DNA of 64,000 bases, taken from assembly GCA_028280785.1 (NCBI GenBank), contig JANQLF010000116.1:87377-151376 (forward strand), in the 5' to 3' direction. The DNA comes from Planctomycetota bacterium (GTDB taxonomy: Bacteria > Planctomycetota > UBA11346). The position numbers and the translations under genes were made by a program. The notes beneath the pieces were generated by a model. It made no database searches. It worked only from the letters and a program-made list of their open reading frames with translations, and had not been told where the DNA came from. The number at the start of each line of letters is the position of its first letter. Position 1 is the stretch's first letter. Positions 27,997 through 61,392 of this stretch are shown here, one piece after another.

Positions 27997-28001
27997 GTTG
28001 A

Positions 28002-29009: not shown

Positions 29010-29051
29010 GTTTGCTTCCTCCAAATACGCACACCAATACGTGTAAAAAAC

Positions 29052-36747: not shown

Positions 36748-37743
36748 ATGTCTGCTCGTCTTGGGCTGCACGCCGCCCTTAAACATGCTGATCCAATTGT
36801 AGCGCCAACGGCAGCTCGATTGCTTGCCGAAATTGAAGATCGTGAATCAATACCAGCATTGATAGATTTCGTATTGCATTCCCGTTCCTACGCCAAAACC
36901 GCCGGACTGAATGCATTAAGAAGCTTGGATGCCCAGGATGCTATTCCGGCTTTTGAGCAATTGTGTGCTGATCCATATGTTCCCGATGATTTCTACTGGT
37001 ATGGCCATAAAGGTGTGCGTGCCTCCGCCGCGGTACATTTATTGAGTTGGGGGAATACCGCTGGTGAAAGGTTTCTGCAAGAATTGCTTGATAATAAAGA
37101 TCGGGTAATTCTTCGTGATTTTACTGCGACCATTTTACAAATAAAAAATCAAGCAGCTGAAGGAATTCAAAAACAATTGTCGTTTGAAGCCTTATGGGAT
37201 GAAGCGCAAACAGTATCGTTGCAGGACACGGCATATACAGATGCATCACAGTTATGTTCTTTATGTGAAGCAATGGCATTTGTTGACGATGAACGAGCTG
37301 ATCAGTGTCTGCGTTATTATATGGATTATTACAGCCGCTATGTACGTGGAGAAGCGTATAAATCATTATATCGACGACATGGCGATGCCGTCGTGGCAGA
37401 AATCACTGACAGCGTCAATCGACATAATACTGATTTTGATCGTGTGGTGCTTGGTTTAATTAGTAAAGATGGTGATGCGCTCAAACAGATTGCTGAATCT
37501 GCACAACAAGCGTTTGACCGTACGGCTGCTTTGCACGCTTTGGCTGAAATCGAAGCACCTTGTGATGAGACATTGGCATTGTCTTTTATCAATAAGTCTG
37601 TTGGTGATGAGATCTACGGGGCTTTAGAATGGATTGTTCAGACCCAGTCCTATGACATTGCATTACCGGAACGCAGCAACGATGCACTGTACGACGTCTA
37701 TGTAAATGTTTTAGCTTTGAAAAAGGAGCTAGCACCATGTTAA
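36748..37743 (+). CDS. HEAT/armadillo-like repeat protein
   Basis: Repeated helical-pair units carry IPALIDFVL...ALRSLDAQDAIPAFEQL-type HEAT signatures. The call is tentative. Confidence 0.5.
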   Translation: MSARLGLHAALKHADPIVAPTAARLLAEIEDRESIPALIDFVLHSRSYAKTAGLNALRSLDAQDAIPAFEQLCADPYVPDDFYWYGHKGVRASAAVHLLSWGNTAGERFLQELLDNKDRVILRDFTATILQIKNQAAEGIQKQLSFEALWDEAQTVSLQDTAYTDASQLCSLCEAMAFVDDERADQCLRYYMDYYSRYVRGEAYKSLYRRHGDAVVAEITDSVNRHNTDFDRVVLGLISKDGDALKQIAESAQQAFDRTAALHALAEIEAPCDETLALSFINKSVGDEIYGALEWIVQTQSYDIALPERSNDALYDVYVNVLALKKELAPC

Positions 37744-45892: not shown

Positions 45893-46416
45893 AATCAGCT
45901 GATTTTATTTAGGTTACGTATGTCCTTGAGGGGGTTCAAGCGCCATTCACCTATTTGTCGTAGGAGTTCATGAATCGATCGTTGATTATGCATCCAATGC
46001 TTATTTATTTTGACACATTGTCCGTCTGCAAAATTAAAAAAACTTCAATGTATGACACAATCTGAGTAGGCTAAAAATGCTCAGCACTGCGCTTAACAAC
46101 CTGAGTGATTGATCGAGACCAGTAGGCTCAGTGCTTATGGTACGTTATTGAAAGTGGCAATTGATTGAGTGACTATAAATGAGGGCTAAACATCTATCAT
46201 ATACTGACTTAGTGCGTTTGCTCGTAGCCGTGCTGTATTTACATAAAGATACAAGTTTGTGTTCCAAAGGTGTGTGCCGCAGTCCTTAATTTTGGATGAT
46301 TTTAAAAGTGTGAATTTGCCGTCTGTGCAGGTCTAGCTACCAAGGGAGCAATACGCTGTAGACCTAAAACAGTTCCGGGCTTGCAGCACTCTTAGTGTCT
46401 TGCAATAGTCCAGGCA

Positions 46417-47799
46417 ATGGCACAGACCTTTGCGTGTCCACATTGTGAGGCTACGTACCGTGCGCTGCCAACTCTGGTAGGGCGTAAGGTGCGTTGTAGC
46501 TCGTGTAAAAACGTATTTCAGTTACAACATACCGGTATTGCTATTAAAATTGGTGAGGACGGTAAAAAATCCGATCCCGCACTCGAAAAACAAAAAGGTG
46601 CACTTGAAACTAAAAAACCGGATGCAGGCAAACAGGTAGGGGCCGTTCCGCAAAAACAAACAGCAGCCGCAAAAACGCGACCACAGACCCGAGCGATACG
46701 ACGAAAAACCGAACGTATTCAAAACATGCGCTCATCTCTTCAAGAAGCAGCGCAGCAGGCCTTGCAAGTTGAAGAAAAAGTTGCTTCTGAACGCATAGAA
46801 AAGAAAGACCTACGAAAACCTTCGAAGGCGAAAGCCAAGCGTGTAACTGATAGTCATGTTGTCACCTTAAGCGGTGCAGCCGAAACCGAACAAAAAGTCA
46901 AACGTTCAATGGGTTATATCCTATTAGGTATTGTAGGCTTTTTTGTTTGTGTGTATTTCCTCATGGGTAGCCAATCTCCTCAAGAACAAGCCCTATCGGA
47001 CTTCTCCCAACCTATCGAAGATGAATATTTAAAACATCCGCTACGCATGGATGGCTATGGTAAGCGCTTGTGGCGAACTAAACGTCAGTTTAACGAGCCG
47101 GTACCGATTGTCTTGAACGTGAATAGGGCGACGTGTGCGAGTGTTGTTAGTTATGAATGGCCAGAGGTGGTTGCCTTTATGGCCAAGACTATCGAGAAAA
47201 TGCAAGTCTATGATCTGTTGCCAATCTGGATTAATCCAGGTGATAAAGAGCGCATCGATAAATTATGGAAAGACTTTCCAAATAAAACTAATATAGCAGA
47301 GTTTTATGGATTACTTAAAAAAGAGGATGTTAAATATTATGCAATGAATGAATTGCCGAGTTTAATGCTTAATCAAGGAATTCCGCAATCGGTGGTCTAT
47401 GTGACTAGTATGTTATTACTGCCTGGTCTACCCCAGGAAAATAATGAAAAAATATTTGGCGGAGATATGCCGATTGAATTATTAATAACCGAATTTAATG
47501 GTGTCAGTGGTAGCCGATTATTTGACTCTGGCGCGGCATATGACATAGAAACATTGCCGCATTATTCGGGTTTATTGGTTGGTTTTACTGGTATTTCGGG
47601 TGAATCAGGTGAATATTGGAAAATATTGGATGTGCGCGTTGCTAAAAATATGAGTTACTATTATGAATTAGCAGAAAACCCATTAATTAAATATGCAAAA
47701 ATAAAAAGCCAATCACTGCGCGTAAAAATGCGCCAGCAAGCGGAAGAAGATGGATTAATCGATCCTTTTACCGGCGAATTAATGGATCCGAATAATTAA
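46417..47799 (+). CDS. zinc-ribbon (MJ0042-type CxxC...CxxC) membrane protein with unknown C-terminal domain
   Basis: CPHCEATYRALPTLVGRKVRCSSCKNVF is the zinc ribbon. A K/Q/A-rich linker leads to one TM (ILLGIVGFFVCVYFLM), followed by about 270 aa in which I recognised no motif. Confidence 0.7.
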   Translation: MAQTFACPHCEATYRALPTLVGRKVRCSSCKNVFQLQHTGIAIKIGEDGKKSDPALEKQKGALETKKPDAGKQVGAVPQKQTAAAKTRPQTRAIRRKTERIQNMRSSLQEAAQQALQVEEKVASERIEKKDLRKPSKAKAKRVTDSHVVTLSGAAETEQKVKRSMGYILLGIVGFFVCVYFLMGSQSPQEQALSDFSQPIEDEYLKHPLRMDGYGKRLWRTKRQFNEPVPIVLNVNRATCASVVSYEWPEVVAFMAKTIEKMQVYDLLPIWINPGDKERIDKLWKDFPNKTNIAEFYGLLKKEDVKYYAMNELPSLMLNQGIPQSVVYVTSMLLLPGLPQENNEKIFGGDMPIELLITEFNGVSGSRLFDSGAAYDIETLPHYSGLLVGFTGISGESGEYWKILDVRVAKNMSYYYELAENPLIKYAKIKSQSLRVKMRQQAEEDGLIDPFTGELMDPNN

Positions 47800-47858
47800 A
47801 TTAATTGCATCAATAAACATCAGACCTCTGTGTCTAAATTATTATTAAAACACGAGTA

Positions 47859-47906
47859 ACAGTAAATAAAACATACATGTATTTACTGTCCGGGCGTCCG
47901 GATTTT
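47859..47906 (+). terminator. double hairpin with terminal U-tract
   Basis: ACAGTAAATA-(11 nt)-TATTTACTGT forms a 10-bp stem. It is followed directly by CCGG-gcgt-CCGG and TTTT (47903-47906). Confidence 0.6.
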
Positions 47907-47938
47907 GCAATTTATGCGTCTCTATTGCGGATGTGCAT

Positions 47939-48469
47939 ATGGATCAAATTGAACAAATTATTCAACGATATTGTGATGGCGAATGTAGCCCTGAAGAATC
48001 GAGCGCGGTGCAAAAGCTGATTGAACAAGACCAAGAAGCACAACGCATCTATCACTTTTTAACATCACTCGATAACGACCTACTCGACCTGCCTTTGGTC
48101 GATCCAGAACCCCAAATTGAACACATCATGAGTGCGATACCGGAGTGGACACCATCCCGGCATGTGCGTATCAATACTGGCTTTATAGCTGTGATGGCGC
48201 TATTATGCGGTATGGCTCTGACGACAATTGGAATCCATTATAATTCAGATGGTAGTTCCATAAGTACGCTCATGATAGTGACTTGTATGTGTGTCTTGGG
48301 ATCGGGACTGGCTTTGGTCCTGAGTCTGCCCGGACGCAGCCCAACGCTTCAACTCATCAAACGTGCCTTTAGTCGTTCTGTAGACTTTACTTACATGCAA
48401 TCAACGAGTTTACGCTGCGCTGCAGTCTTATTGTTGGTTCTGGCTATCTGGACTTGGAGTGGGGTATGA
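47939..48469 (+). CDS. membrane protein with anti-sigma-like N-terminus (no adjacent sigma factor)
   Basis: The track start at 47933 is GTG; ATG 47939 gives 176 aa. QRYCDGECSPEESSAVQKLIEQD resembles the anti-sigma N-terminal helix but lacks the zinc ligands. It has three hydrophobic helices and is ATGA-coupled to the next gene. Confidence 0.55.
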   Translation: MDQIEQIIQRYCDGECSPEESSAVQKLIEQDQEAQRIYHFLTSLDNDLLDLPLVDPEPQIEHIMSAIPEWTPSRHVRINTGFIAVMALLCGMALTTIGIHYNSDGSSISTLMIVTCMCVLGSGLALVLSLPGRSPTLQLIKRAFSRSVDFTYMQSTSLRCAAVLLLVLAIWTWSGV

Positions 48470-49059
48470 ATCTACTGCGCCGTGGCTTTACCTTGATCGA
48501 AATGCTGGTGGTAGTAGCCATCATTCTCCTCTTGGCATCACTGTTGGTGCCGGCGGTCATGGGTTCACAAGAGTCATACGACAAGATGGCTGCTACCGAC
48601 CTAGTTGGTGGCTTGCTCATCGCCCTGAATATTCAAAAGCTCGAATCCAAGGGATACCCGTTACCGGATAATCAAGAAAGCACCAATAAATCCGACGCCG
48701 GTTACTACATCGGTGTTTTTCGTTATGACCGTAGTGATAAAAATCCGGGTTTGGTTAATCGCCTAGTCGAATCACAAAAATTTTCCTTCGATGCAGCCAA
48801 TATGCTGAACGATGATAATATTTTAATTGATGGCTGGGGGAATCCTATTCATTATGTGTTAGGTAATGCCGCTAACAGCAAAAATTTAGCAAGCTATGAC
48901 GACACTAAACCGCAAGATTTGAATAAACCAAAATTTGCTGACGTAGCACCATTAGAATCTGATTGGAATACCGGAGACATAGCTGGTTACCCTTATATTT
49001 ATTCCGAAGGCGCTGATGCGGGCGCTGGCGATGAATCATGGATTTATCCAAAGGATTAA
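48466..49059 (+). CDS. GspG-like major pseudopilin (prepilin-type N-terminal cleavage/methylation domain)
   Basis: GGAG SD precedes the start. MNLLRRG|FTLIEMLVVVAIILLLASLLVPAV carries the cleavage site. DGWGNPIHYV matches the GspG DPWGNPY motif. 197 aa. Confidence 0.85.
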   Translation: MNLLRRGFTLIEMLVVVAIILLLASLLVPAVMGSQESYDKMAATDLVGGLLIALNIQKLESKGYPLPDNQESTNKSDAGYYIGVFRYDRSDKNPGLVNRLVESQKFSFDAANMLNDDNILIDGWGNPIHYVLGNAANSKNLASYDDTKPQDLNKPKFADVAPLESDWNTGDIAGYPYIYSEGADAGAGDESWIYPKD

Positions 49060-49061
49060 TT

Positions 49062-50162
49062 ATGCGCCGACAACAACAGGCATTTACTTTAGTAGAATTA
49101 CTCGTGGTCATGGCGATCATGGCATTATTGGGAACGATGTTGTTTGCGATGATTGGTAGTGCTGATGATAAAAATAATGAATTGGAAACCGATTTATTAA
49201 TTTCACGTTTAGTCGCAGCCTCAGAACAATTTGAAAATTTAACGGGCGATATCGCTCTGCCAACGGGTGATCGTACCGATCCCTTAAGTGGTTCTTGGTA
49301 TCCAAGCTCAAATACTGGAACTTGGGAGAATCAGCAATTATGGTGGCGTTTTAGCACCGAGATGACTGATGCTGATCGAACAGCTGCAGAAGCCAATGCA
49401 TTGACTGAAGATATTAAGGCGGATCCCTATCAAAGTGAAAGTTATTTAAAAAATAAATATCCAACACTCAGTGGTTGGCAGCGCATTGCAAAAAAAGAAG
49501 AAGCACTTGACGTTGTTTCTGATGCTGAGGCAGATGATTATAAAGGAACGCACGCTGGCTCTTGGGGTACCGTTACAAATGCCACTGCCTTAGCGAATGG
49601 GGCAAGCGGTGATGTCCCTGATCCTTATGATGGCCATTTTACCAAGCGCGGTACGGTGAAACGCAAAATCTTACTAATGCGCGGTGCTATTGCGCGTGAC
49701 ATCGGTATGCGCAAGTATCAAACCATGCCGATACTTGAAGTAAATGATATCGGCAAAGATTTTCTTGAAGATGATACCGTCAAGGATTTATGGGGTAATC
49801 CACTGATTTACATAGCCCATTCAACACGTGGTGTGAAATATGTAAAACCTTGGAGATGGGGCTGCAATGCCTTGGCCATCGGTGCAAACCCAGGTGGGCG
49901 AATTGAAGTAGACGACCGTAATCAAGATGGTGTGGCAAACGATAAAGATTGGATCGTCGAGCCGACTGTGAATAAAAAAGGTGACTGGGATGAAAGTGGT
50001 GCCATCGATTCAGATGATTGGGATAATATGTTGTATAATGCGCGCCCGTCTAACGGCCGTGGTGTTTATATAGCGAGTGCTGGTGAAGACGGTTTGTTTG
50101 ACTGTCGTCGCACCCAACCAGTCAACGAAGATAACATTGAGAATAAACTCGAGGACCAGTAA
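49062..50162 (+). CDS. enlarged GspG-like pseudopilin (366 aa)
   Basis: AAGGA SD precedes the start. It has QQQA|FTLVELLVVMAIMALLG and a second copy of the G-type motif (DLWGNPLIYIAHS), with an SAGEDG tail. About 200 aa are inserted between the N-terminal helix and the G-core. Confidence 0.75.
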   Translation: MRRQQQAFTLVELLVVMAIMALLGTMLFAMIGSADDKNNELETDLLISRLVAASEQFENLTGDIALPTGDRTDPLSGSWYPSSNTGTWENQQLWWRFSTEMTDADRTAAEANALTEDIKADPYQSESYLKNKYPTLSGWQRIAKKEEALDVVSDAEADDYKGTHAGSWGTVTNATALANGASGDVPDPYDGHFTKRGTVKRKILLMRGAIARDIGMRKYQTMPILEVNDIGKDFLEDDTVKDLWGNPLIYIAHSTRGVKYVKPWRWGCNALAIGANPGGRIEVDDRNQDGVANDKDWIVEPTVNKKGDWDESGAIDSDDWDNMLYNARPSNGRGVYIASAGEDGLFDCRRTQPVNEDNIENKLEDQ

Positions 50163-51482
50163 ATGTTGAAAAAAGCATTTACGCTTATCGAAATGCTCGT
50201 CGTGGTGTCCTTGATTGGATTGCTATCGACAATGATAGTGTTCTTGTTCGAAGACTCTGCGGAAGATGCGCTGAGTAAAAGTGCCCTTGAATTAAAATCG
50301 GTAATGGATCGGGCGCGCAGTTTGGCGATCAAAACAGGTCGTATGCATGCGGTTGCCTTTCATGTCGAAAATGCCGGTGATGGAAGTGTCTTAAAAAACT
50401 TTTCTGAAGTTGATGATGAAACATTTCCAGGACGTCATTGGTATTGCATCATCGGACCAGACTTCTCCAACGTTGGAACAACAGCGGGTTGGAGTAGAAG
50501 TTTAACCAAGATACCCGTCGCTAACGATGGCCAAAATGGCAACCTTTTATCTTTTTATAGCTTGTCTGATTACATTGAATGCATGAAGAGTGTGCAAGTT
50601 GGGCCGCGTCATTATTTATTGCCTGGCGTGCGTTTTTTAGCCCTTGGTGATGAGGATAAATTATATTCAGGTTACTCACATGCGACGTATCCACGACCAT
50701 GGTTTGGTTATTATGATGATACGACGAATACCTTACATCCGTGGGGAGCTTGGGATCCAGATATAGACACCACCTTTCAATTCCCAAGTACCGGTTTGGA
50801 TTATCAGGGTGAGGATCAATTACCGACTTATTATGCACCCTACGATACGCTTATAAATCCAACCGAAGTGTGGGGTCGCATTCATCCCAATGCAACCGCA
50901 CCTGATATGGAATTTGTTACTGATGGTAGCGAGGATAGATCCTGCAATATTTATCGCGGATTTGTTCAAGGATTCATTGGCCCTGATACCTATTACTTAG
51001 CGTCTACCCCAACGCGTAAAGTACCACGCCCATTAATTAATGCCTATTGGGGTGATTTTATGATTCTCTATGATGCTAAGGGTACAGCGCGCACTGTTGT
51101 TGGTGATGGTCGCGATACCTATTTCGATGCGATTAAATGGTATAGTGGTCGTCACAGCGACCGTGGTTCAAGCGCTAATTTCGGTCGACGTGACATGGGC
51201 ATCGGCAATAAAGTTGATTACACAGGTGGCTTTTATGTAACCATCTGTCGCGATATTGAAGATCACGAACAATTATATTCAGAAATTAATAGCACGACAG
51301 GTGCCTTTGATTTTACCAAATTCAAAAGTGTTGAAGATGCATTAGAATCGATAACGCCATATAAGCGCATATTTGTGTGGCGAGCGACCGGCTTCTCTGA
51401 GATACGCGATATGTCGCATCCACAATGTCAGATCGAAGCTGATGACTTGCTCCAAAAGGATCCGTTCCCCAATGGCTATTAA
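50163..51482 (+). CDS. enlarged GspH/FimT-like minor pseudopilin (439 aa)
   Basis: MLKKA|FTLIEMLVVVSLIGLL is followed by ELKSVMDRARSLAIKTGRMHAVAF, a GspH-type pattern. The start directly abuts the previous stop (TAAATG). Confidence 0.7.
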   Translation: MLKKAFTLIEMLVVVSLIGLLSTMIVFLFEDSAEDALSKSALELKSVMDRARSLAIKTGRMHAVAFHVENAGDGSVLKNFSEVDDETFPGRHWYCIIGPDFSNVGTTAGWSRSLTKIPVANDGQNGNLLSFYSLSDYIECMKSVQVGPRHYLLPGVRFLALGDEDKLYSGYSHATYPRPWFGYYDDTTNTLHPWGAWDPDIDTTFQFPSTGLDYQGEDQLPTYYAPYDTLINPTEVWGRIHPNATAPDMEFVTDGSEDRSCNIYRGFVQGFIGPDTYYLASTPTRKVPRPLINAYWGDFMILYDAKGTARTVVGDGRDTYFDAIKWYSGRHSDRGSSANFGRRDMGIGNKVDYTGGFYVTICRDIEDHEQLYSEINSTTGAFDFTKFKSVEDALESITPYKRIFVWRATGFSEIRDMSHPQCQIEADDLLQKDPFPNGY

Positions 51483-51909
51483 TCGACTCGGGCGTACGAG
51501 CGAGGGTTTTACCCTGATCGAAGTAGCTATGTCGATTGCTATTTTGAGCTTTGGTTTAACGGCTATTTTAATTGTGTATTTAACCTCACTACGTTGGGCT
51601 GAGGAAATTCGTATTGATTTAACCAGTTTGCATTCAGCTCGAGCTGCTATTTATGACGCCGGTGTCTTAACCGATGAATTTGATGTATCGGCAGGTTTTG
51701 ATAACTCTGACACGCCGGCCAGTGGTTATGTCAATGATTATTATATTGTGCGCACCTATACTGAAGATCCATTCGCAACGGGCCTAGCAACAGCAGGTAC
51801 CTATGTCGATGTTGAAGTAAAAGTGTATTACGGCGGAACCGATTTAACCGGTCGCTTGGTACAAACGATCAATTGTTCGCAAATTATTCACTCGGATTAT
51901 AATCCATGA
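51472..51909 (+). CDS. GspI-like minor pseudopilin (145 aa)
   Basis: The internal ATG 51472 gives MAINRLGRTSEG|FTLIEVAMSIAILSFGLTAIL. The track start at 51373 lies inside the previous gene. Confidence 0.65.
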   Translation: MAINRLGRTSEGFTLIEVAMSIAILSFGLTAILIVYLTSLRWAEEIRIDLTSLHSARAAIYDAGVLTDEFDVSAGFDNSDTPASGYVNDYYIVRTYTEDPFATGLATAGTYVDVEVKVYYGGTDLTGRLVQTINCSQIIHSDYNP

Positions 51910-53204
51910 TGCAATCTCGAGCAGCGTTTACGATAATTGAAATTTTAGTCGCGTCGACTTTGTTTACGATGCTGATGGGCGTGGCTGCATTTGCCTTTCA
52001 ACGTTTAAATGAAGGCGGTCAGTATGCTCAGCGAATTATCGAATTACACGAGCGTTCAGACAGTATTATTCGTTTGATGGAGGAAGATATGCGCGCCTTG
52101 CAACAGACCGTTGCCATCCATATCGATACCGACAGTGCTTTGCGCTCATTTACATTTATGCGCCAAACTACCAATCAAAATGATGCTGGTTTTGGTGGGA
52201 ACGATATTGTAGGAAGTTTAACTGGTCTTGGCCAAGAAGAAGCACAACGCGGTGATGTGTCGTGGGTCAAATGGCAGTGGGGTGATGGTGATATTAAGCG
52301 CGCCATTTCACGTCCACATTTTACCTTTAATGGTTGGACCGGTGATCGACGTTACACTGATAATACGAAGCAATATATTAAAAATGTGAATTTTGCCACA
52401 TCTGGTACAGCCTATTACGGTATGCATCGCAACGGCATTACACCGACACCGCAAAAACAGTTTTTATATTTTTATGGCAATGGCAATTTTAGAACAGTTA
52501 ACAGCGATGGTTCGGTTAACGCACAACCTGGTGATCAAATTCATGTTTATAAGAAAGTGGCTGCTACTGATTTTAATGGTAATAATTGTGTGCACTTTGA
52601 TGAATTAACCAGTAAATGGCGAGTGGATAATGATTTTAATCATTGGTATACGACCTATTTGGTTGGTAATGATGAGCAGCTTTCTAATCAAGCTTTTGCC
52701 GTGATGAATGCTGATGGCAAGACCTTTAATAAAGATCGATTAAACCTCGAAGGTTGCGATGATAATGATGGTAATGGTAATTACTATTATCCAGACCGTA
52801 CACAGGCTTTGTTTACTGGTGTAGAATTTATGGAAATAAAATTCTTTAAACGCAATGGTACAGAAATTGATGCTGGCGATGATGATGACACGATTAATGA
52901 CGGTGCGACAACAATAGATATCAATGGAATAGCAGACGACGCCAGTGGTGTTGGTATAGAAAAACGACCAGTTGTATTACGCATTACCTTTTTACTGCAT
53001 TCGATTGACCGTAATGAAATCGATGAAGGCGACTACGATAATGACGGTGATGACACGGAGTACTTAGTACAAGCGGTGAGAGATATGGTTGCAGCAGAAG
53101 GACTGGCAACTCGTCAGGAACAAATTGATTCATTTAAAAAGCATGCGCAAGGTTTGAGCGCATCGAGTGTTGTTGTTAATTATGCAATTAAGTTGGGGCT
53201 ATAG
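51906..53204 (+). CDS. enlarged GspJ-like minor pseudopilin (432 aa)
   Basis: It is ATGA-coupled. MMQSRAA|FTIIEILVASTLFTMLMG is followed by IIRLMEEDMRALQ, a GspJ-type helix. Confidence 0.6.
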   Translation: MMQSRAAFTIIEILVASTLFTMLMGVAAFAFQRLNEGGQYAQRIIELHERSDSIIRLMEEDMRALQQTVAIHIDTDSALRSFTFMRQTTNQNDAGFGGNDIVGSLTGLGQEEAQRGDVSWVKWQWGDGDIKRAISRPHFTFNGWTGDRRYTDNTKQYIKNVNFATSGTAYYGMHRNGITPTPQKQFLYFYGNGNFRTVNSDGSVNAQPGDQIHVYKKVAATDFNGNNCVHFDELTSKWRVDNDFNHWYTTYLVGNDEQLSNQAFAVMNADGKTFNKDRLNLEGCDDNDGNGNYYYPDRTQALFTGVEFMEIKFFKRNGTEIDAGDDDDTINDGATTIDINGIADDASGVGIEKRPVVLRITFLLHSIDRNEIDEGDYDNDGDDTEYLVQAVRDMVAAEGLATRQEQIDSFKKHAQGLSASSVVVNYAIKLGL

Positions 53205-53212
53205 GTGATACA

Positions 53213-55774
53213 ATGATGAACCAATCTTCAACACGATTAGCAAGTTCGCTTTTATTAGTTATCTCCATGATTGTCTTAATGGTAACGGTTGCGACTGCCT
53301 TTATGACCACCATGTCGCGCCAACGCGGAACTGCGGTTTTATTAGCAGCGCGTACCCGTGCAGAGATTGGCATGGAGCATGCCACGGCAAAACACATAAA
53401 ATTATTATTAGAAGATTACCGCGACACCTCTTCGAAGTATTCAAAAGCAAGTGGTTCAAGCGGATCAAGATGGTATGTCGATAGCCTTGCCATCGGTGAT
53501 CCGGATGGTGATCCGTGGACCGAAGACGGAACGCCATTGGGTTCCGGTTATCGCGATACCAATAATATGGTAAATATTGGTAATAGTGTCAATTTAGCCG
53601 ATATGATGAATCGTAGTTCTGGTGATAGCCGTAATGAATACTATGGGATGTCATCAGAAATTTCACGTTGGCATAACATCGAATTTTACGACGATTTTTT
53701 CCAACCCATTGAAATTGATCCTAGTTTACCTGAGGCACAAAAAGCACTACTGCGTAAACGCGCGCGCTATGTGCTGCGCTATAGCCATAAAACCATGGAC
53801 TGCGATGCACAATTAACTGTTAATAATAATTATCCAGGTGCGCCTATTTTATATAATTCAGCCTCACCGGATGATTATAATCGTTATCAAAGCTATCTGC
53901 GTCACTTTGGTCGCAGCATTAAAAGTATGACGGCGATGATATCGAATTTAGATGGCAGACAGATGCGTTCGGATGATGGCGATTTTAGTGATACCAAAGA
54001 CCAATTTGATTATGAAGAGCTCAGCATTTGGGCTGACGGTTTGCCGATGGATTGGGATGGCGATGCGAGCCATCGACGCATGGTTAACCTGCTTGATGAT
54101 TTACGCCTACGCCGCGAATCGGCATTTCGTATGGATCCACGCACTTGGGTCGAAAATACTAATGGATTGGATACCAAAACACCGCATATGAAAGGTTCCA
54201 ATCGTATAACAACCTGGCACAGCATCGGCCGTCATCATGGCGGGACCGGTATGAATGGCGCCTATTATCATCCGCATTTTCAATTTACACCCTACGGTGC
54301 TAGCATGTTGGGCACGCCGCTTGGTGGGACAGATGAATGCACGGTGCCATGGCGGGTTAATATGCTTACCTGTAATTATCGGGCCTTAGCATCTATTTAT
54401 GGTGGCCTATCATCACATATTAAACATGCGAGTTCAGGTGTCCCTTATTTGGCTGATCACGCGAGCAAGAGTAGCTGGTGGAGTAGTGGAGCTGGTGCAA
54501 ATGCAGATTTATTTGGTCCCGGTTATCCAGAACCATTTCCACTCGGTTTTGAAGACGGTAAAGATATCCATTTAATCGGTGATATTAATAAAAGCGTACT
54601 CGCCGGAACAACCTGGCCTGATTATGACAATGGTTATTTGGCGAATAAACAGCCATTTTTTGGTGGTGGTCTGAGTGTCGATGATAAGGGTGTGGCGGCA
54701 TATAAAAATGGTACGTGGATGTATTATCCAGCTTATGCGCATAGCTATTGGGCTGATGTTTTTCAAGCCTTTGATTTAACACGTCGTCGTATTATTTCTG
54801 CATGGGAAAGCCCGCGTAATCTCTACACCAATCATCAGAGAAATAGCGAGGAATACTTTTTTGTGATGCAAAATCCTGAAACGGGGGCTAATTACAGTGG
54901 CGGTCATGAGCCATCGTGGATAGATCCTGCGACCGATGATCCAGACACGATGATGAATCAAATTATTATGGAGACCTGTCGCATACTTGGTGAGGGTTAT
55001 ATCAGTCCGCATTCAGGAGCGACACCGGCGCAATCGTGGAATCGCTATGATAATTCGGCTCTTAGTTTATTGGGTGGCGGAGAAGCATTGGTTGGATTGA
55101 ACATGAGATGGGATTGGAAGGATCGTCCTGCCAAGCGCTGTAAATTAAGTCTACAAGCTAATACCCGAGCCATGGAATTTGTACTGAATGATTGTTTGAT
55201 TAGTTTATACGGCAAAGCAAATCCACATTATAATCCGGCTTCTGATAATCTGAGAGATATTGCTGTTGACTTTAATGGTGATGGTTATGCCGAAAGCACG
55301 GTAACAGGTTGGTATAACACGGCGACAAACGCCCGTGTTTGGTCATGGTGGTGGAATGGTCTTGGCCCTGAGGCTTTTCCAGCCAACGGCGATTGGATGA
55401 AACAAGGTACATGGATACGCTTTTATCAAAACGGAGATATAGAGCGTAAACGTGGTGGTTCTTGGATCGCGCTCTCTGGCGCCGAAAAGACCGAGTTTTT
55501 ATCAGTGAATAATTTCTTACTAAACGGTAATTGGGTGTCTGACGGCAGCAGTCCGGTGAGACCATTTTCTTATACTGGCCGTTTATTCATCGGTAAGAGT
55601 AAAAAATTCCAAGTGTTTATGCGCACTGAAGTTTTAAATATCCCTAAACGCAAAGTTATGGCAGCAACTAATCGTACCTTTGTCTATAATATAGATCCTA
55701 ATAACGACGGTGATTTTGAAGACTCACACATTGCATCACAGCAAGAGTTCGAATTACAGACGACGGACTTATAA
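53213..55774 (+). CDS. giant GspK-like minor pseudopilin (853 aa)
   Basis: AGGTGA SD precedes the start. It has a hydrophobic N-terminal helix without the Phe/Glu processing motif (SSLLLVISMIVLMVTVATAF), followed by ARTRAEIGMEHATAKHIKLLLED, as in GspK. It occupies the position directly after the I and J homologs. Confidence 0.5.
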   Translation: MMNQSSTRLASSLLLVISMIVLMVTVATAFMTTMSRQRGTAVLLAARTRAEIGMEHATAKHIKLLLEDYRDTSSKYSKASGSSGSRWYVDSLAIGDPDGDPWTEDGTPLGSGYRDTNNMVNIGNSVNLADMMNRSSGDSRNEYYGMSSEISRWHNIEFYDDFFQPIEIDPSLPEAQKALLRKRARYVLRYSHKTMDCDAQLTVNNNYPGAPILYNSASPDDYNRYQSYLRHFGRSIKSMTAMISNLDGRQMRSDDGDFSDTKDQFDYEELSIWADGLPMDWDGDASHRRMVNLLDDLRLRRESAFRMDPRTWVENTNGLDTKTPHMKGSNRITTWHSIGRHHGGTGMNGAYYHPHFQFTPYGASMLGTPLGGTDECTVPWRVNMLTCNYRALASIYGGLSSHIKHASSGVPYLADHASKSSWWSSGAGANADLFGPGYPEPFPLGFEDGKDIHLIGDINKSVLAGTTWPDYDNGYLANKQPFFGGGLSVDDKGVAAYKNGTWMYYPAYAHSYWADVFQAFDLTRRRIISAWESPRNLYTNHQRNSEEYFFVMQNPETGANYSGGHEPSWIDPATDDPDTMMNQIIMETCRILGEGYISPHSGATPAQSWNRYDNSALSLLGGGEALVGLNMRWDWKDRPAKRCKLSLQANTRAMEFVLNDCLISLYGKANPHYNPASDNLRDIAVDFNGDGYAESTVTGWYNTATNARVWSWWWNGLGPEAFPANGDWMKQGTWIRFYQNGDIERKRGGSWIALSGAEKTEFLSVNNFLLNGNWVSDGSSPVRPFSYTGRLFIGKSKKFQVFMRTEVLNIPKRKVMAATNRTFVYNIDPNNDGDFEDSHIASQQEFELQTTDL

Positions 55775-55804
55775 CGAATTATCGCAACACTAAAGGAGAA
55801 AGCC

Positions 55805-57991
55805 ATGCGCTTTTTCATTATATCGATTTTAACCATGACCTTCGCACTGCTCAGTGCAGCAACAGCGCCAACACAGTGGCCGCCACACTGGTGTAGTGAT
55901 ACCAATGGTGGTGCCCAGGGTACCAATCAAGACGACCATACGGGTCTTGATTATGGCACTGATTCTTGGGGATATTGGGCCAACTTGGATATAGAGGATG
56001 GCAGCGGTAATCCATTAGCGACTATCGAAATGCGTTTCATCGTTCCCGGTGATGCACCGAATAATGGTTACTACATGGGTGCCCGCCCTGGTGAAGAAGG
56101 TGCACGTATTCAGGAAATGGGCATTAACACCGCGAATATTGGACCAGTGGCATCGGAAAAATTTCGTCATTGGGTTCCACATACAGAGATTAACGGTGGA
56201 CAACCATTTTGGGTTTCTTCGTTGGAATGTACCCAGCAAGTTTGGGAAGAAATGAATAAAATCAGTACACCCGGATTCGAGGTGAAGCTCGCAAAATGGA
56301 ATCGATCCGAGCGCAATGTAAATATTGCAGATCGTAGTGATTTACATGAACGTGACACCGCAGCTTTCCCAATCGATTTAGGTACCTTCACTGATTCAGT
56401 GAACCACAGTGATTATCCAATTGATCTTACTGAAATTGGAAACTGGACGACTGCAGTTACCGCGACCTTTCGTACGGCATTTGATTTACATAAGGAATTT
56501 AGAGCAGTAGAAAGTCAAACATTTGATGACTGTAAAAATTTCTGTGAGAATGATTTAACCAATCAAGTGCGTTCGCAATCAGGTTCAGCGACGGTTTCTA
56601 TTCGCTTACCGACTGAAAAGGAATGGGAGTTTATCTGTCGTGGAGGAACTGAATCGGCTTTTTGGTGTGGTCCGATATTAAGTGGTGTTCAATTTCGCAT
56701 GGAAAATTTAACCGTTGCCAAAACTGACTTTATGTTCCCTTTTGATAGCGCGCATATCGATGCCAATATTAAAGATGCACTTGGTGGCGACGGTAATCTA
56801 CACCGCGAATGGTTTTCAGAAGGCAACACCCATATTAATATTACTAATGTATCGTTAGATGGAACAGCTAACTGTGATCATAGTGTGCGTATGGACCTCG
56901 CAGGTAATGTATCGATGTCTGGTGATTTAGAGGCGGTTCCCGTCGTTGCGAATTTTGATGAGCGCTATCAAGCCCATTGGGTACCGAATGAATACGGATC
57001 ACATACGCCAATTTTAATGACCTATACTATGAGTGGCACTGATTATATTCCGGCACCCTATACACCAGTTGGTGCTGGTGTGTATTATCGTTACCTAGGT
57101 ACTGATACCTACGTTTTGTCGACTTCGATTACGGTTGCTAATACAGAAATTGACCGTTCGCATAGTATTTTCCGTGGCAAACGTCAACCAGCCGATACGG
57201 TGCCAGGTGATATAGCTGCTGCTGGTCGACTCGAATATGTTGAGATGGTGCGTGTGAATGTGCGATGTAATTCATCTGGCGTCGAAATGGAAGACGGTCG
57301 CTACACCTATGATTCATTAGGTAATGTACATCCAATTCGTACGCTCTATACGCCAGCCGCGTATCGTCGTGATGGTAAATATATTGGTTCCACTTTCCCG
57401 GACATGGAACGTGGAACACAGAGTAATGAAGATTTTGCTCGTCGCTCTGATTTATCTGATAATCCCGCTGAAGAGATGACGGTTGAAGATTACGTGGTGG
57501 CCTTCAAGCAAGCTTGTGCGACCCATTTAAAACATAAGCCCACCGATGTAAATCCGTGGTATTCAGGGAATAAAAATTACACAGTTACGTATACCGAAAC
57601 TGAATTTGACGTAAACGGGAATCCGGTTGAAGTAACCAAAACTAAAGCTGTAACGGTTACAAAAATTACACCGTATAGTTATCACGCGCAATTTCTTGAA
57701 AACATTAATATTAATGCGACGTTAAACAGTGCGATAACTGCTATCTTGCCAGAAGATCAACTGCGTAATCCATTCGGTCTCTATAATACCCATGGCAATG
57801 TTTCTGAATGGGTCGATACCACTTGGGACGGTTTAAGTGATCATAGCGCTCATAAGACGGGTAAGTTTCAAATGACTCGTGGTGGTTCATGGCGCAATGG
57901 CGCCCAATACTGCCGCAGTTCATCACGCGTTGGTCGCGATGGCAGCAAAGCATATGACGATGTGGGCTTTCGTTTTATATTAACTGATTAA
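55805..57991 (+). CDS. secreted protein with FGE-sulfatase/SUMF1 (C-type-lectin-like) fold split by a large insertion
   Basis: AAGGAG SD and a signal peptide are present. The N-terminal FGE blocks are MRFIVPGD...YYMG...HWVPHTEINGGQPFWVSSLECTQQVW and RLPTEKEWEFICRGGTESAFWCG. The C-terminal blocks NPFGLYNTHGNVSEWV and RGGSWRNGAQYCRSSSR...DDVGFRFI appear only about 350 aa later. Confidence 0.75.
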   Translation: MRFFIISILTMTFALLSAATAPTQWPPHWCSDTNGGAQGTNQDDHTGLDYGTDSWGYWANLDIEDGSGNPLATIEMRFIVPGDAPNNGYYMGARPGEEGARIQEMGINTANIGPVASEKFRHWVPHTEINGGQPFWVSSLECTQQVWEEMNKISTPGFEVKLAKWNRSERNVNIADRSDLHERDTAAFPIDLGTFTDSVNHSDYPIDLTEIGNWTTAVTATFRTAFDLHKEFRAVESQTFDDCKNFCENDLTNQVRSQSGSATVSIRLPTEKEWEFICRGGTESAFWCGPILSGVQFRMENLTVAKTDFMFPFDSAHIDANIKDALGGDGNLHREWFSEGNTHINITNVSLDGTANCDHSVRMDLAGNVSMSGDLEAVPVVANFDERYQAHWVPNEYGSHTPILMTYTMSGTDYIPAPYTPVGAGVYYRYLGTDTYVLSTSITVANTEIDRSHSIFRGKRQPADTVPGDIAAAGRLEYVEMVRVNVRCNSSGVEMEDGRYTYDSLGNVHPIRTLYTPAAYRRDGKYIGSTFPDMERGTQSNEDFARRSDLSDNPAEEMTVEDYVVAFKQACATHLKHKPTDVNPWYSGNKNYTVTYTETEFDVNGNPVEVTKTKAVTVTKITPYSYHAQFLENININATLNSAITAILPEDQLRNPFGLYNTHGNVSEWVDTTWDGLSDHSAHKTGKFQMTRGGSWRNGAQYCRSSSRVGRDGSKAYDDVGFRFILTD

Positions 57992-58000
57992 AACAGGAGC

Positions 58001-59305
58001 ATGTCAGCTCAAAGCGCAACGCTCGGTGTTTTGTGTATAGTACTAACGGCAACGATTATTTCGTTGCCGTTTTTCGTCATGGAAGAAAAGTCAGATACCC
58101 CACAGTGGCTCTCAGATGCACAGCCGACTGTCTCTGGGAAGTCGTACCCCGCTGGAGATATACGTTATAAGCGCATTCCTTTGTGGACCGAAGTAAAACA
58201 GTTACCGCTTATCGCAAATGTGCAGATCCACGATTACGATAAAAATGGGCAAACGGAAGCGATTGTCTGTGACCTTCAACAAAATGCGGTGTTCGCTTAT
58301 CCAATGCAGGCTGATGGCTCATATAAAGAAGTAACGCTGGTAAATGATTTGCGTATGCCCGCGCATTGTACCTTTGCCGATATCAATCGTGATGGGAAAG
58401 AAGATCTCTTAGTTGCAAATCTTGGTGATTTATTTCCTAATAATGAACGCGTTGGCCAAGTGCTATTTTTCGAAAAAACTGAAGCAGGCTATAAGAAGCA
58501 TGTTATTGCTAATCATGTGCGGCGCATTGCTGATATACAGGCTGGTGATTTTGATGGTGATGGCGATCAGGATCTGGTGGTTGCCGAGTTCGGTCACTTT
58601 GAAGGCTCAGTATTTCTACTTGAACAAGTAAAACCATTAACATTTAAACGTCACAACCTACTTATTGGCTGTGGTTCCATACATACGCCGGTCGCGGATT
58701 TTGATGGTGATGGTGACTTGGATATTGCCACCGTGCTTTCGCAAGATGAAGAAGAAGTGTGGATTTTAGAAAACGATGGTAGGGGCCAATTTAAAAACCA
58801 TCTCGTTTACCATAATGCGAATTATGAACTTGGTTGTGGTGGATTGGTTGCAAGTGATGTGGATCAAGATGGTGATGTAGATTTATTACTACCTGCTGGC
58901 GACAATTTAGAGCGATCCATTCATTTTCCCTTACAATTTCACGGCTGTTATTGGATAGAGAATAAAGGATCCTTAAAATTCGAAACCCAACGAATTGGTG
59001 ATTTACCGGGAACCTATGCAGTAGATGCAGGAGATTTAGACCAAGATGGTGATATCGATGTAGTGTTGGTGAGTATGAGCAATGATTATTCCAATCCAAA
59101 TGCAGCGAGCATTGTTGCCTTAATTAATGATGGCGCGCAACAGTTTAAACCTACGCAAATTGACTCAATCCCGATACAACTCATTACCTGTGCTATTGGT
59201 GACCTGAACAACGATGGTAAGAATGACATTCTTGCAGGCGCTCTACGTATTCACCCACCGTTTCGACATATGAGTCGTATTTCAGCGTGGATACAAGAGC
59301 CATGA
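58001..59305 (+). CDS. FG-GAP/VCBS-repeat (integrin-alpha-like beta-propeller) protein, membrane anchored
   Basis: It has an N-terminal TM. Repeated units include ADINRDGKEDLLVAN, GDFDGDGDQDLVVAEF, ADFDGDGDLDIATV, SDVDQDGDVDLLL, GDLDQDGDIDVVL and GDLNNDGKNDIL. Confidence 0.8.
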   Translation: MSAQSATLGVLCIVLTATIISLPFFVMEEKSDTPQWLSDAQPTVSGKSYPAGDIRYKRIPLWTEVKQLPLIANVQIHDYDKNGQTEAIVCDLQQNAVFAYPMQADGSYKEVTLVNDLRMPAHCTFADINRDGKEDLLVANLGDLFPNNERVGQVLFFEKTEAGYKKHVIANHVRRIADIQAGDFDGDGDQDLVVAEFGHFEGSVFLLEQVKPLTFKRHNLLIGCGSIHTPVADFDGDGDLDIATVLSQDEEEVWILENDGRGQFKNHLVYHNANYELGCGGLVASDVDQDGDVDLLLPAGDNLERSIHFPLQFHGCYWIENKGSLKFETQRIGDLPGTYAVDAGDLDQDGDIDVVLVSMSNDYSNPNAASIVALINDGAQQFKPTQIDSIPIQLITCAIGDLNNDGKNDILAGALRIHPPFRHMSRISAWIQEP

Positions 59306-60483
59306 AAGTCCTAAGCTTCATTTTAGCGGTAATTTTAATGGTAGAGGCAGCGGCTTTATTTACCTACAAAGACGTGGATGAAAAAATAGAATTGCCGAAG
59401 ATTTCTTTTGATCACATAGTCGACAAGGGCGCGCGTGATACCCTTGCACAATTATATCAACATGCTTTAAAAGAATATAAAAAGTCTAATGACCTGGCCA
59501 AACTAGTACGTGTAGCTGACTTGTTGTTGTGTTATGGTTATAATGAGGAAGCAGCGCATATCTATTACGCCATTTTATCCAAGGATTCAGAGCAAGAACG
59601 TGCCTGGCAGGGTTTAGCGTTGTGCTATGATAGTCTTGGTCAGTTTGAAAATGCTATCTTAGCTTATACAGAAGTCTTAAAACAGAATTTACAAGAATCT
59701 GATTTACGAGAAATAAAACATCGTATTGCAGAGGTTACTCAAATTCAGGGCCGTCCATCTGAGGCGATGCAATTGTATGAACAAAATATCGAGCATAGCC
59801 CAAGTCGTTATCGTTACATTCGCTTAGTTTTACATGCTGGTGATTTTAATTTAGCGCAAAAAGAATTTGCTTTATTGCTCAATGATAGTGAAGCTCATGA
59901 CGCTATCGAAGTGCAGCAATTAAATGATTTATCCTTACGTTTGCATGGGAAATATATGCAAGAAATAGCGATAAATCAGCGTGATTCACTGTGGTCTTAT
60001 CAGCCCATTGATAAATTTAAACGAAGCTTGGAATCTTTTTATGGCATGTCGTTGATGGAATTGTTTACGCCGGCACTGCGTGAAATGCCGCAAATAACTG
60101 AAGACCCGATATTTATGAACGATATAGATTTCTGGGGCTTACTGAAGAAAAAGGACATTATAAACAGTGGCAAAGAAGTCTTTGAAAAACATAACTGTAT
60201 AATATGTCACGGTAAGGAAGGATATGGCCAAGTAGGTCCAAATTTACGTGATGATTTCTGGTTGGGTTTTGGTTCACCAGGGGGCATTTATGACACGATA
60301 ACCTATGGGCGCAGCAATGGCACTATGCCCGGCCACCAATTTTCTTTGCATCCTGATCAAATACGTGATGTCACTGTATATATAATGGATTTAAATCTCA
60401 AAACTGAAAAATATGAAGGACGGACTAAGCAGGGTAAGGCGCACGAAGGTAAGTTAGATCCGTTGAGTAAATATCGAAAATGA
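59302..60483 (+). CDS. membrane-anchored TPR protein with C-terminal mono-haem cytochrome c domain
   Basis: ATG 59302 is ATGA-coupled, whereas the track start at 59287 is GTG. It has a TM (VLSFILAVILMVEAAALF), TPR-like units, then CIICHG (CxxCH) with GPNL and a distal TMPG Met ligand, resembling a CcoP-type cytochrome c module. Confidence 0.75.
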   Translation: MKVLSFILAVILMVEAAALFTYKDVDEKIELPKISFDHIVDKGARDTLAQLYQHALKEYKKSNDLAKLVRVADLLLCYGYNEEAAHIYYAILSKDSEQERAWQGLALCYDSLGQFENAILAYTEVLKQNLQESDLREIKHRIAEVTQIQGRPSEAMQLYEQNIEHSPSRYRYIRLVLHAGDFNLAQKEFALLLNDSEAHDAIEVQQLNDLSLRLHGKYMQEIAINQRDSLWSYQPIDKFKRSLESFYGMSLMELFTPALREMPQITEDPIFMNDIDFWGLLKKKDIINSGKEVFEKHNCIICHGKEGYGQVGPNLRDDFWLGFGSPGGIYDTITYGRSNGTMPGHQFSLHPDQIRDVTVYIMDLNLKTEKYEGRTKQGKAHEGKLDPLSKYRK

Positions 60484-61292
60484 AGCAACGTACGTTCCCC
60501 ATTCGTATACAAGAACTAGCGTATCGCGAAGCTGATGCTGAGTATGATATTGGACCACATAGTCATAATATTTATCAGTTATACTGTGTCTTGCGCGGTG
60601 ATGTAACGATGTGGATTGAAGGCGAAGACCATATCCTTCCAGCTGGACAATTAATTATTGTGAGCCCGGGTAAAGAGCGCGCACCACGCTGTAGCGGACG
60701 TGCCCCTGTCTATGCCATAGCTATGTTAGATGCGCAGCGCTTTGCCATAGATGAACTTTGTAACCGCCCATTGGTGTTGAATGAATTAATGCTGCAGCAA
60801 ATGGAAGCGCTGATTGCTGATTTAGTGGAACCTGATTTGGGCAATGCGCAGGATTATCGCACTTCAATTATTTGTCAGATTTTAATTGATTTACGTCGTC
60901 AGCTGCGCGCCGGTTCAACGACCAATCAATTACCACGACATAATGCAAATGCACGTAATGATGTGGTGGCCCAGGCCGAAGCCTTTATGGATGCGCATTT
61001 GCATCTTTCTATTAATAGACAGCAAATTGCTGAGGCAGTGCATTTTTCAGCACCACATTTAGCGCGTTTATTTAAGGCAAGCCTGGGTAAAACTATTAAT
61101 CAACGTTTGACCGAAATGCGTTTGGAGCAAGCCAAGCGCTTCTTATTGCAGAGTACCTACCCGATTACGCAGATTGCTGGTGAAGTGGGCTTCCAATCTT
61201 TCAGTCATTTTGCCAAGTTGTTCCAGCAAGCGACGGGTATGACACCATCCGAATATCGTAGCGGCCTCGGCCGTCGCATCGTTCGGAAATGA
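60480..61292 (+). CDS. AraC-family transcriptional regulator
   Basis: It is ATGA-coupled to the cytochrome gene. It has a cupin-like N-terminal half and a C-terminal double HTH (IAEAVHFSAPHLARLFK...ITQIAGEVGFQSFSHFAKLFQQATGMTPSEYR). Confidence 0.85.
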   Translation: MKQRTFPIRIQELAYREADAEYDIGPHSHNIYQLYCVLRGDVTMWIEGEDHILPAGQLIIVSPGKERAPRCSGRAPVYAIAMLDAQRFAIDELCNRPLVLNELMLQQMEALIADLVEPDLGNAQDYRTSIICQILIDLRRQLRAGSTTNQLPRHNANARNDVVAQAEAFMDAHLHLSINRQQIAEAVHFSAPHLARLFKASLGKTINQRLTEMRLEQAKRFLLQSTYPITQIAGEVGFQSFSHFAKLFQQATGMTPSEYRSGLGRRIVRK

Positions 61293-61392
61293 TCGTTTTC
61301 CACACATACTTGCTCATTCTGCGCTAGAATTCAGTGTTTTTGGCTATACAATGTGGCGTTCCAGATACAACTTGTAGCAGTGGAGCAATGAA

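Follow-up and report, generated by a model that had tools for sequence, protein, structure and literature searches.

In type IV pili (T4P), minor pilins and PilY1 together form the priming and tip complex (PMC7541494), while MshQ, CpaL and GspK engage in beta-strand addition at the tip, and a conserved non-pilin partner encoded after the K-type gene is a trait of T4P and of mannose-sensitive hemagglutinin (MSHA) pili (PMC13533445). The minor-pilin tip complex of S. sanguinis bears a lectin (PMC9934059), and in M. xanthus the cytochrome c TfcP stabilises the PilY1.1 tip protein, an action that involves no electron transfer (PMC8833165). In Verrucomicrobiota, the MUL2 locus of Akkermansia has been put forward as a case of glycan uptake that depends on pili, with components unrelated to those treated below (PMC13174399). 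Here we describe a cassette of six pilin-like genes (g02-g07) followed by a gene for a secreted FGE-fold protein (g08), located in a 64-kb stretch of contig JANQLF010000116.1 of a Planctomycetota bacterium. The whole stretch analysed is referred to as the window.

The cassette resembles the GspG-K block of type II secretion systems (T2SS) in that a major-type pilin is followed by four minor pilins in the same order, prepilin N-termini with Glu5 occur in all proteins but the last, and this last protein is the largest and aligns to GspK over its first ~95 residues. It differs from that block in having two G-like genes, subunits 2-2.6 times larger (H 439 vs 169, J 432 vs 195 and K 853 vs 327 aa), no gspC-F, L, M, O or D nearby, a similarity that stops after the N-terminal segment, a secreted FGE-fold gene after K, and multiple copies per genome. 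With type IVa pili (T4aP) and MSHA pili (FimU-PilVWX-PilY1, MshDOP-MshQ and M. xanthus clusters 1-3) it shares four minor pilins (g04-g07) followed by a large secreted non-pilin (g08), several alternative sets per genome and the EF-hand-like motif Dx[DN]xDGxxD, and a cytochrome c gene is present in the cluster, tfcP in M. xanthus (PMC8833165) and g10 in the window. However, the cassette partner is FGE/C-type-lectin-like and not a PilY1 beta-propeller, the calcium motif is found not in the partner g08 but in two copies in g07 and seven in g09, and g07 is matched by none of the E. coli T4P minor pilins. In contrast to TfcP, a His/Cys cytochrome, g10 has a canonical CxxCH and Met-Pro and is fused to TPR repeats.

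Bulky tip modules on minor pilins also confer binding specificity in S. sanguinis PilB and PilA-PilC and in C. crescentus CpaL (PMC8179133, PMC9934059, PMC13533445), whereas the cassette modules have no detectable relation to these and the FGE-fold module is a separate polypeptide. The C-terminal FGE half of g08, with the RLPTExEWE motif, aligns with PorK/GldK, PvdO and T. denticola variable protein 1, but g08 has no lipoprotein signal, its fold is split by an insert of ~365 aa, and it is partnered with a pseudopilin set instead of the type IX secretion system (T9SS) or the pyoverdine pathway. The Verru_Chthon cassette, whose proteins A-D we take to be NCBIfam/TIGRFAM TIGR02596 and its siblings, is likewise a stand-alone multi-gene prepilin-type cassette of bacteria of the Planctomycetes-Verrucomicrobia-Chlamydiae (PVC) type, unlinked to machinery. 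It was rejected as the family of the present cassette, since g02-g04 scored far under the cut-off of protein D (17.9-25.3 bits against 70, over the N-terminal helix only), and no other Verru_Chthon model was matched by g05-g07 at E <= 0.01. Our literature search found nothing on the Verru_Chthon cassette.

A preceding sequence-only reading of the window knew of no described pseudopilus or type IV filament module with its gene combination. We also found no literature description of a pilin cassette with an FGE-fold partner, although a cytochrome c in a minor-pilin/PilY1 cluster does have a precedent in TfcP (PMC8833165). The cassette is a member of no curated family, as the tests for GspG/H/I/J/K, PilY1, catalytic FGE, PorK/GldK and Verru_Chthon all fail, and by analogy it would work most like a T2SS G-K block joined in concept to a T4P/MSHA tip-adhesin arrangement.

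A seven-gene core conserved across related loci

Eleven forward-strand open reading frames (ORFs), g01-g11, were confirmed across 47939-61292 (Table 1), and their coordinates and junctions were all as the sequence-only reading had given them. ATGA overlaps occur at 48466, 51906, 59302 and 60480, g03 and g04 abut as TAAATG (50160-50165), and g04 and g05 overlap by 11 nt at 51472. The gaps inside the run measure 2, 8, 30 and 9 nt, and 100 nt follow position 61292. Alternative starts are available at 49038 for g03 (vs 49062) and at GTG 59287 for g10 (vs 59302). While these eleven ORFs had been proposed to form one unit, the same-strand run is longer, beginning at 46417 with a 139-nt gap before g01 and going on through 61393-63468, and in a comparison of gene neighbourhoods just g02/g03-g08 recurred.

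Table 1. Features of the cassette region; positions are those of the window.
Feature	Position	Strand	Description	Matches or motif
g00	46417-47799	+	Zn-ribbon/single-transmembrane protein, 460 aa	weak Zn_ribbon_4 and MJ0042 matches
hairpin pair	47859-47901 (approx.)	+	two adjacent hairpins, then UUUU, between g00 and g01	
g01	47939-48469	+	membrane protein, 176 aa, ~3 hydrophobic segments (76-101, 106-132, 153-176)	
g02	48466-49059	+	GspG-like pilin, 197 aa	motif GFTLIEML; N_methyl 1.4e-6
g03	49062-50162	+	second G-like pilin, large C-terminal body, 366 aa	motif AFTLVELL; N_methyl 1.9e-8
g04	50163-51482	+	GspH/FimU-like minor pilin, 439 aa (E. coli GspH 169 aa)	TIGR01708, hhalign
g05	51472-51909	+	small minor pilin, GspI/PilV position, 145 aa	N_methyl 2.5e-5; weak PilV match, E = 0.0066
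g06	51906-53204	+	large minor pilin, GspJ/PilW position, 432 aa	N_methyl 18.6 bits, sub-cut-off
g07	53213-55774	+	GspK-position cap protein, 853 aa	N-terminal hydrophobic helix without Glu5 (ASSLLLVISM)
g08	55805-57991	+	Sec-secreted split FGE/C-type-lectin-like fold protein, 728 aa	FGE-sulfatase 4.5e-19, in two stretches
g09	58001-59305	+	N-terminally anchored seven-bladed FG-GAP/VCBS propeller, 434 aa	FG-GAP_3 8.6e-36
g10	59302-60483	+	N-terminally anchored TPR and class I cytochrome c protein, 393 aa	Cytochrome_CBB3 1.5e-9, TPR_19 2e-8
g11	60480-61292	+	AraC-family regulator, cupin sensor and HTH, 270 aa	HTH_18 2.8e-24, Cupin_2, AraC_binding

The conserved unit is the seven genes g02-g08 (48466-57991), not eleven. 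The order g02/g03-g08 is kept, with tight spacing and 23-80% identity, in the window, in L001-L010 and in L012. The closest relative, L002, is 51-80% identical and collinear from g03 to a GFO gene (g03-g12), and is the only locus in which g09-g11 follow the cassette; the contigs of L002 and L004 begin inside g03. Cassette identities amounted to 35-53% for L001, 31-46% for L003 and 23-32% for L012, the last coming from an Andean microbial mat. One metagenome-assembled genome (MAG), CBDUFM01, holds at least seven cassette copies on seven contigs (L004-L010). The K-like proteins of these copies are 26-39% identical to g07, and the K-like gene of L008 is broken into two ORFs, perhaps by a frameshift or because it is a pseudogene.

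The g08 gene directly follows the K-like gene in 10/10 close loci covering that position, with a spacing of -8 to +66 nt, and an FGE-motif protein, the probable g08 counterpart, also follows the K-like gene in the remote locus L011. Scanning metagenomes with the g08 family brought up 80 loci with generic FGE domains, and g02-g07-like neighbours were present at none of them, so the FGE-pilin link is specific to the g08 subfamily. In remote relatives, K-like proteins of 900-1250 aa stand behind similar runs of pilin-sized genes. For example, the P0066 locus encodes products of 195-375-543-139-399-1246 aa, three of them with N_methyl matches, and has no FGE gene after K, with GH94 and an AraC-type regulator adjacent. 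The conserved system is six pilin-like genes, with an FGE-fold partner in one subfamily, and g01 and g09-g11 are local additions.

Genes around the related cassettes differ from locus to locus. PL14-like lyases and a CBM4_9 protein neighbour the cassette in L001, a PL14-like lyase in L007, and GH52, a sulfatase, a hybrid kinase, ROK and GH3 in L012. Beside the hybrid kinase and ROK of L012, sugar-type regulators next to the cassettes comprise an AraC HTH in L005, a LacI-like C-terminus read from an ORF fragment in L003 and a Peripla_BP_3/HTH_18 regulator in L013, and L010 has a UxaA-like gene (our own reading), a HEAT protein and a 438-aa protein.

Pilin-like proteins, K-like cap and FGE-fold partner

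A count of class III (prepilin) motifs over the 64 kb gives exactly five, one each in g02-g06; together with the hydrophobic helix of g07 they bear out the earlier description of six consecutive pilin-like products. The Pfam N_methyl cut-off was reached by g02-g05, while g06 lay narrowly under it (18.6 vs 21.2 bits). Family profiles were compared by hhalign with GspG-K of E. coli K-12, and also with the T4P-type Ppd minor pilins of E. coli. The g02 profile matched GspG at 98.5% over 65 columns, while against TIGR01710 (GspG) the protein scored 43.7 bits, under the cut-off of 88.85; orthologues of g02 are present in L005, L010 and L012 and were not detected in L001 or L003. The g03 profile matched GspG at 94.3% over 60 columns, and g03 was found in every locus covering its position; it alone matched the GspI model, with 17 bits against a cut-off of 44. 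For g04, 35.9 bits with TIGR01708 (GspH) fell under the cut-off of 80, and its profile matched GspH at 95.4% (62 columns) and PpdA at 87% (61 columns), the latter fitting the H/FimU type; the g04 orthologue in L012 gave a weak Pfam GspH match (E = 0.014). The small pilin g05 is the best conserved of the set, with 46-71% identity in most loci. In the family alignment g06 shows an acidic, Asp-rich cluster with invariant D373, D376, D378, D380 and E385.

Glu5 is kept in g02-g06 and their orthologues with one exception, a g02-like ORF in L010 with Leu, and is absent in g07. Glu5 in the first five proteins and none in the last is the hallmark distribution of an ordered filament with a K-type cap. 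The prepilin -1 position is Ala in g03, g04 and g06, and Gly and Ala alternate there among orthologues, which suggests an Ala-tolerant peptidase or inefficient cleavage.

The K-like protein g07 had no match in Pfam or NCBIfam, and both g06 and g07 lacked any match to the curated GspG-K models. Its family profile, built from 20 sequences, aligned with E. coli GspK at 79.8% over 88 columns (residues 5-99), scored less than 8% with each of GspG, H, I and J, and matched no E. coli T4P-type minor pilin, YgdB and PpdC included. The remote relative P0066 gave a weak match to NCBIfam T2SS_GspK (NF037980, E = 7e-4). A word-indexed search of 5.8 billion proteins retrieved 5 homologues including g07 itself, and a second such search with the g07 alignment added none. 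An exhaustive hidden Markov model (HMM) search of 1.84 billion gave 165 cluster representatives, 35 of them at E <= 1e-30, while no relatives of the g07 family turned up in a scan of metagenomes. AlphaFold2 (AF2) modelling of g07 from a 5-sequence alignment reached a predicted local distance difference test score (pLDDT) of 33, and from 60 sequences, with the remote relatives added, a pLDDT of 80.9 and a predicted TM score (pTM) of 0.87. The modelled chain opens with an N-terminal helix of 65 residues, passes through a mixed middle and closes with a beta region whose terminal strand (839-846) is confident. Being confidently modelled, without a PDB match and outside Pfam and NCBIfam, g07 is, as far as the predicted structure goes, a new fold family.

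Two calcium-type loops were found in g07, DFNGDGYAE (686-694) and DPNNDGDFED (828-837), which are EF-hand-like and of the PilY1 type, for which the consensus is Dx[DN]xDGxxD (PMC8833165). They are also the most conserved motifs of the K-like superfamily, AxDFNGDGxAEST (686-696) ranking first and DPNxDGD..D (828-837) second. The pattern Dx[DN]xDGxx[DE] is kept in 17/20 members of the g07 family, and D686 and D690 are conserved at >=90% even among the 60 remote relatives.

In g08 the FGE fold is formed by two segments, one with the RLPTEKEWEF motif at 265-289 and the other at 654-724, separated by the ~365-aa insert. Its PDB matches were T. denticola variable protein 1 (best), PorK/GldK, FGE and PvdO. 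In a manual alignment, GGSYMCHRSYC of human FGE, whose catalytic cysteines are C336 and C341, corresponds to GGSWRNGAQYC of g08, and the first catalytic Cys is replaced in 7/7 family members. With one of two catalytic Cys missing, g08 was rejected as a working sulfatase-maturating FGE. It was also rejected as PorK/GldK, scoring 46.2 bits against 350 (TIGR03525) and having an N-terminus, MRFFIISILTMTFALLSAATAP, without a lipobox Cys. Among Pfam and NCBIfam models g08 matched FGE-sulfatase and no PilY1/PilC family, and no PilY1/PilC C-terminal beta-propeller was detected in it. Because a single FGE catalytic cysteine is kept, g08 is probably a binding or structural FGE-fold protein and not a catalytic one.

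Accessory genes and flanking sequence

Domain matches confirmed the split FGE protein, the FG-GAP propeller, the TPR-cytochrome c and the AraC regulator named in the earlier reading. The anti-sigma-like character that it had given to g01 is weak, as the zf-HC2 match is sub-cut-off (E = 0.006); with no adjacent sigma factor and no conservation of the gene, g01 was rejected as a bona fide anti-sigma factor. A g01-like ORF was found in none of the related loci, of which L002 and L004 begin inside g03, and g01 appears to be a local membrane accessory outside the conserved cassette.

The propeller g09 contains seven DxDxDG calcium loops, against 0.03 expected, and among the related loci has homologues only in L002 (59%) and L015 (70%). 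The g10 gene overlaps g09 by ATGA and is translationally coupled to it. Its product carries the heme motif CIICH (residue 299) and, as the distal ligand in our reading, a Met-Pro, so that it looks like a canonical His/Met cytochrome. Full-length homologues of g10 numbered 3, itself included, among 5.8 billion. The g09-g10 pair recurs in L015, where the next gene differs and is not AraC, and the two would be a lineage-specific accessory pair. The regulator g11, ATGA-coupled to g10, is likely a local inducer-sensing regulator. At 100 nt after g11, the forward-strand region 61393-63468 encodes a GFO/IDH/MocA oxidoreductase and a xylose-isomerase-like TIM-barrel protein, and the oxidoreductase is kept in the same place in L002 (11693-12187, 65%). 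The targets of the AraC regulator may therefore include this sugar-modifying pair no less than the pilin cassette.

Upstream of g01, the double-hairpin terminator of the earlier reading is present as two hairpins with UUUU, but it is weak: the pair folds at -16 kcal/mol (z = -1.68), was equalled by 13/200 shuffles and was not called by a terminator scan. It is possibly a weak terminator. An orthologue of g00 (35% identical) and a Ser/Thr kinase occupy the same position upstream of the L001 cassette, and an association of g00 with the cassette is possible. Two tandem Ser/Thr kinases of ~1150 aa, one with TPR repeats, are encoded on the reverse strand at 38986-45892, and together with g00 they show synteny with what lies upstream of the cassette in L001 (1-5469, 35% identity). 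In the remote locus L014 the gene directly after the K-like one encodes a Ser/Thr kinase. The kinases and g00 may have a signalling link to the cassettes. Further upstream, at 36748-39002 on the forward strand, two overlapping genes encode a HEAT_2 protein of 331 aa and a 421-aa protein, the latter without a Pfam, NCBIfam or PDB match. They are 39% and 58% identical to a pair directly upstream of the cassette in L010 (2175-4441), and may be a further, loosely linked cassette partner.

On the reverse strand, at 16669-29024, an operon of BatA/VWA, DUF58 and MoxR AAA+ genes extends to those for an unknown protein of 1046 aa and a PA14-domain protein of 1738 aa. Behind it, on the forward strand, comes an ECF sigma factor gene (29052-29711) overlapping that of a 422-aa protein without a family match, which may be its anti-sigma factor. 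The gene content looks PVC-like. GC content is even throughout the window, and thus gives no hint of recent transfer, and Rfam models detected no RNA element within 45800-64000.

Filament tip, secretion apparatus or membrane complex

We consider it somewhat more probable than not that the core g02-g08 supplies both an alternative initiation/tip set and the shaft pilins of a type IV filament, be it T2SS-like (a pseudopilus) or T4P-like (a pilus), whose motor, platform, secretin and prepilin peptidase would all be encoded elsewhere in the genome. After processing by the prepilin peptidase, the K-like cap, the small and J-positioned pilins and the H-like adaptor would form the initiation/tip complex, with g08 docked onto the cap in the manner of PilY1, PilC and MshQ in T4P/MSHA pili (PMC7541494, PMC13533445); the contact between g07 and g08 is predicted by this analogy. 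The G-like pilins would polymerise under the tip, yielding a filament with a very large, calcium-stabilised, ligand-binding head. Since paralogous sets adjoin different carbohydrate-active enzymes (CAZymes) and sugar-type regulators, each cassette may provide a head that can be exchanged and is induced by its substrate; here the AraC regulator g11 would control it, and its role would probably be the capture or handling of a polysaccharide. The pair g09-g10 may stabilise the complex in analogy to TfcP. A more ambitious version, which we hold to be doubtful, has interchangeable carbohydrate-induced "fishing heads", each a calcium-stabilised I-J-K-type tip with an FGE/lectin-fold adhesin, that share one machine and reel in polysaccharides as the pilus counterpart of SusC/D selfish uptake, with g09-g10 as a TfcP-like tip chaperone.

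Several observations weigh against a filament tip set. We infer filament assembly from sequence, and the cassette is, as the earlier reading had it, a stand-alone one: no secretin, GspE/PilB, GspF/PilC, GspC/L/M or prepilin peptidase was found in a Pfam scan of 41 window ORFs, and the 10-kb surroundings of the relatives, among them the flanks of L001, L012 and L013, were likewise free of filament machinery. Profile searches upheld the pseudopilin nature of the ORFs over the N-terminal 35-90 residues, to which pilin similarity in the set is limited, but the remainder shows no relation to known pilins. The curated thresholds for GspG, H, I, J and K were all missed (TIGR01710, TIGR01708, TIGR01707, NF037980 and Pfam models), and the family profiles of g04, g06 and g07 retrieved from PDB sequences pilin N-terminal helices or nothing. 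Foldseek with the confident model of g07, the one pilin-like protein covered by the fold comparison, found nothing in PDB (best E = 0.8, no GspK) or BFVD. The -1 residue is Ala, not Gly, in g03, g04 and g06, which may reduce cleavage by the peptidase. The conserved C-terminus of g08, YDDVGFRFI, resembles the last strand of the FGE fold, so that strand donation in the style of PilY1 is uncertain, and the link of the cassettes to glycans is one of gene neighbourhood only.

The individual subunit labels fared unevenly as well. The sequence-only reading had assigned G, G', H, I, J and K in order; of these, N-terminal hhalign matches agree with G, G', H and K. For g05, hhalign failed to discriminate G, H, I and J, so the I label comes from size and position only. 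The g06 profile matched PpdA (95%, 57 columns) as well as GspJ (93.9%, 35 columns), so the J label is positional. The Ppd comparison, tried as a discriminator of T2SS-type and T4P-type sets, did not separate them and showed the J assignment not to be robust. The labels G, G', H and K appear reasonable at the level of N-terminal similarity, while I and J rest on position and size.

Part of the evidence would also suit an alternative pseudopilus of a classical T2SS encoded elsewhere, in which the oversized tip selects particular exoproteins and pushes them out (for example the neighbouring lyases or hydrolases, or the FGE-fold protein) and does not serve as a substrate-binding surface fibre. A G-like gene at the head and the order G-H-I-J-K recall a T2SS, the g07 profile picks out GspK and not E. 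coli YgdB or PpdC, the 98.5% match of g02 is to GspG, and secreted CAZymes adjoin several copies. We nevertheless regard a secretion piston as unlikely, because T2SS pseudopilin genes normally lie inside gspC-O operons, as in the E. coli layout, whereas the cassette is always an orphan, and we know of no precedent for seven paralogous pseudopilus sets serving one secretion machine. The conserved non-pilin partner after K, moreover, is the T4P/MSHA trait mentioned above (PMC13533445). The lack of machinery genes nearby, the huge globular parts (366-853 aa) unrelated to known pilin heads, the Ala at -1 in three proteins and the membrane anchors of g09 and g10 could instead mean that the prepilin-like N-termini are inner-membrane anchors only, the six proteins and the FGE-fold protein forming a periplasmic or membrane complex that binds or processes a polymer. 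Static anchoring of this kind may apply to many expanded prepilin-like paralogues of PVC bacteria. For the present cassette it is quite improbable, as Glu5 is kept in five proteins across orthologues of 23-80% identity and missing just in the last, which fits ordered assembly and not anchors, the gene order mirrors tip-to-base assembly, and the N-terminal segments match G, H and K specifically.

That all eleven genes make up one dedicated system with redox input, as the sequence-only reading had it, would agree with the tight coupling of the junctions throughout, with the collinearity of g03-g12 in L002 (51-80% identity), and with the cytochrome c that supports the PilY1 tip protein in M. xanthus (PMC8833165). 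It is nonetheless very unlikely, given that at least 8 other copies are without g09-g11 or have other neighbours (L001, L003, L005, L007, L010, L012 and the remote L013 and L014), that g09-g10 in L015 are followed by a non-AraC gene, and that a g01-like ORF was detected in no other locus. The example of TfcP, which acts with no transfer of electrons, means that redox input does not follow from the presence of a cytochrome, and we found no support for that idea.

New here are the cap protein, whose structure is novel, and the unusual distribution of the set in multiple copies linked to CAZymes. If the core g02-g08 is indeed a filament tip set, tip/initiation complexes can exceed the studied G-K and PilVWXY1 sets by far in size and modularity, and an FGE/C-type-lectin-like protein, not a PilY1 propeller, could be the tip partner. 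Paralogous sets beside different glycan-degrading enzymes would then offer a testable mechanism of polysaccharide recognition and acquisition in poorly studied bacteria.

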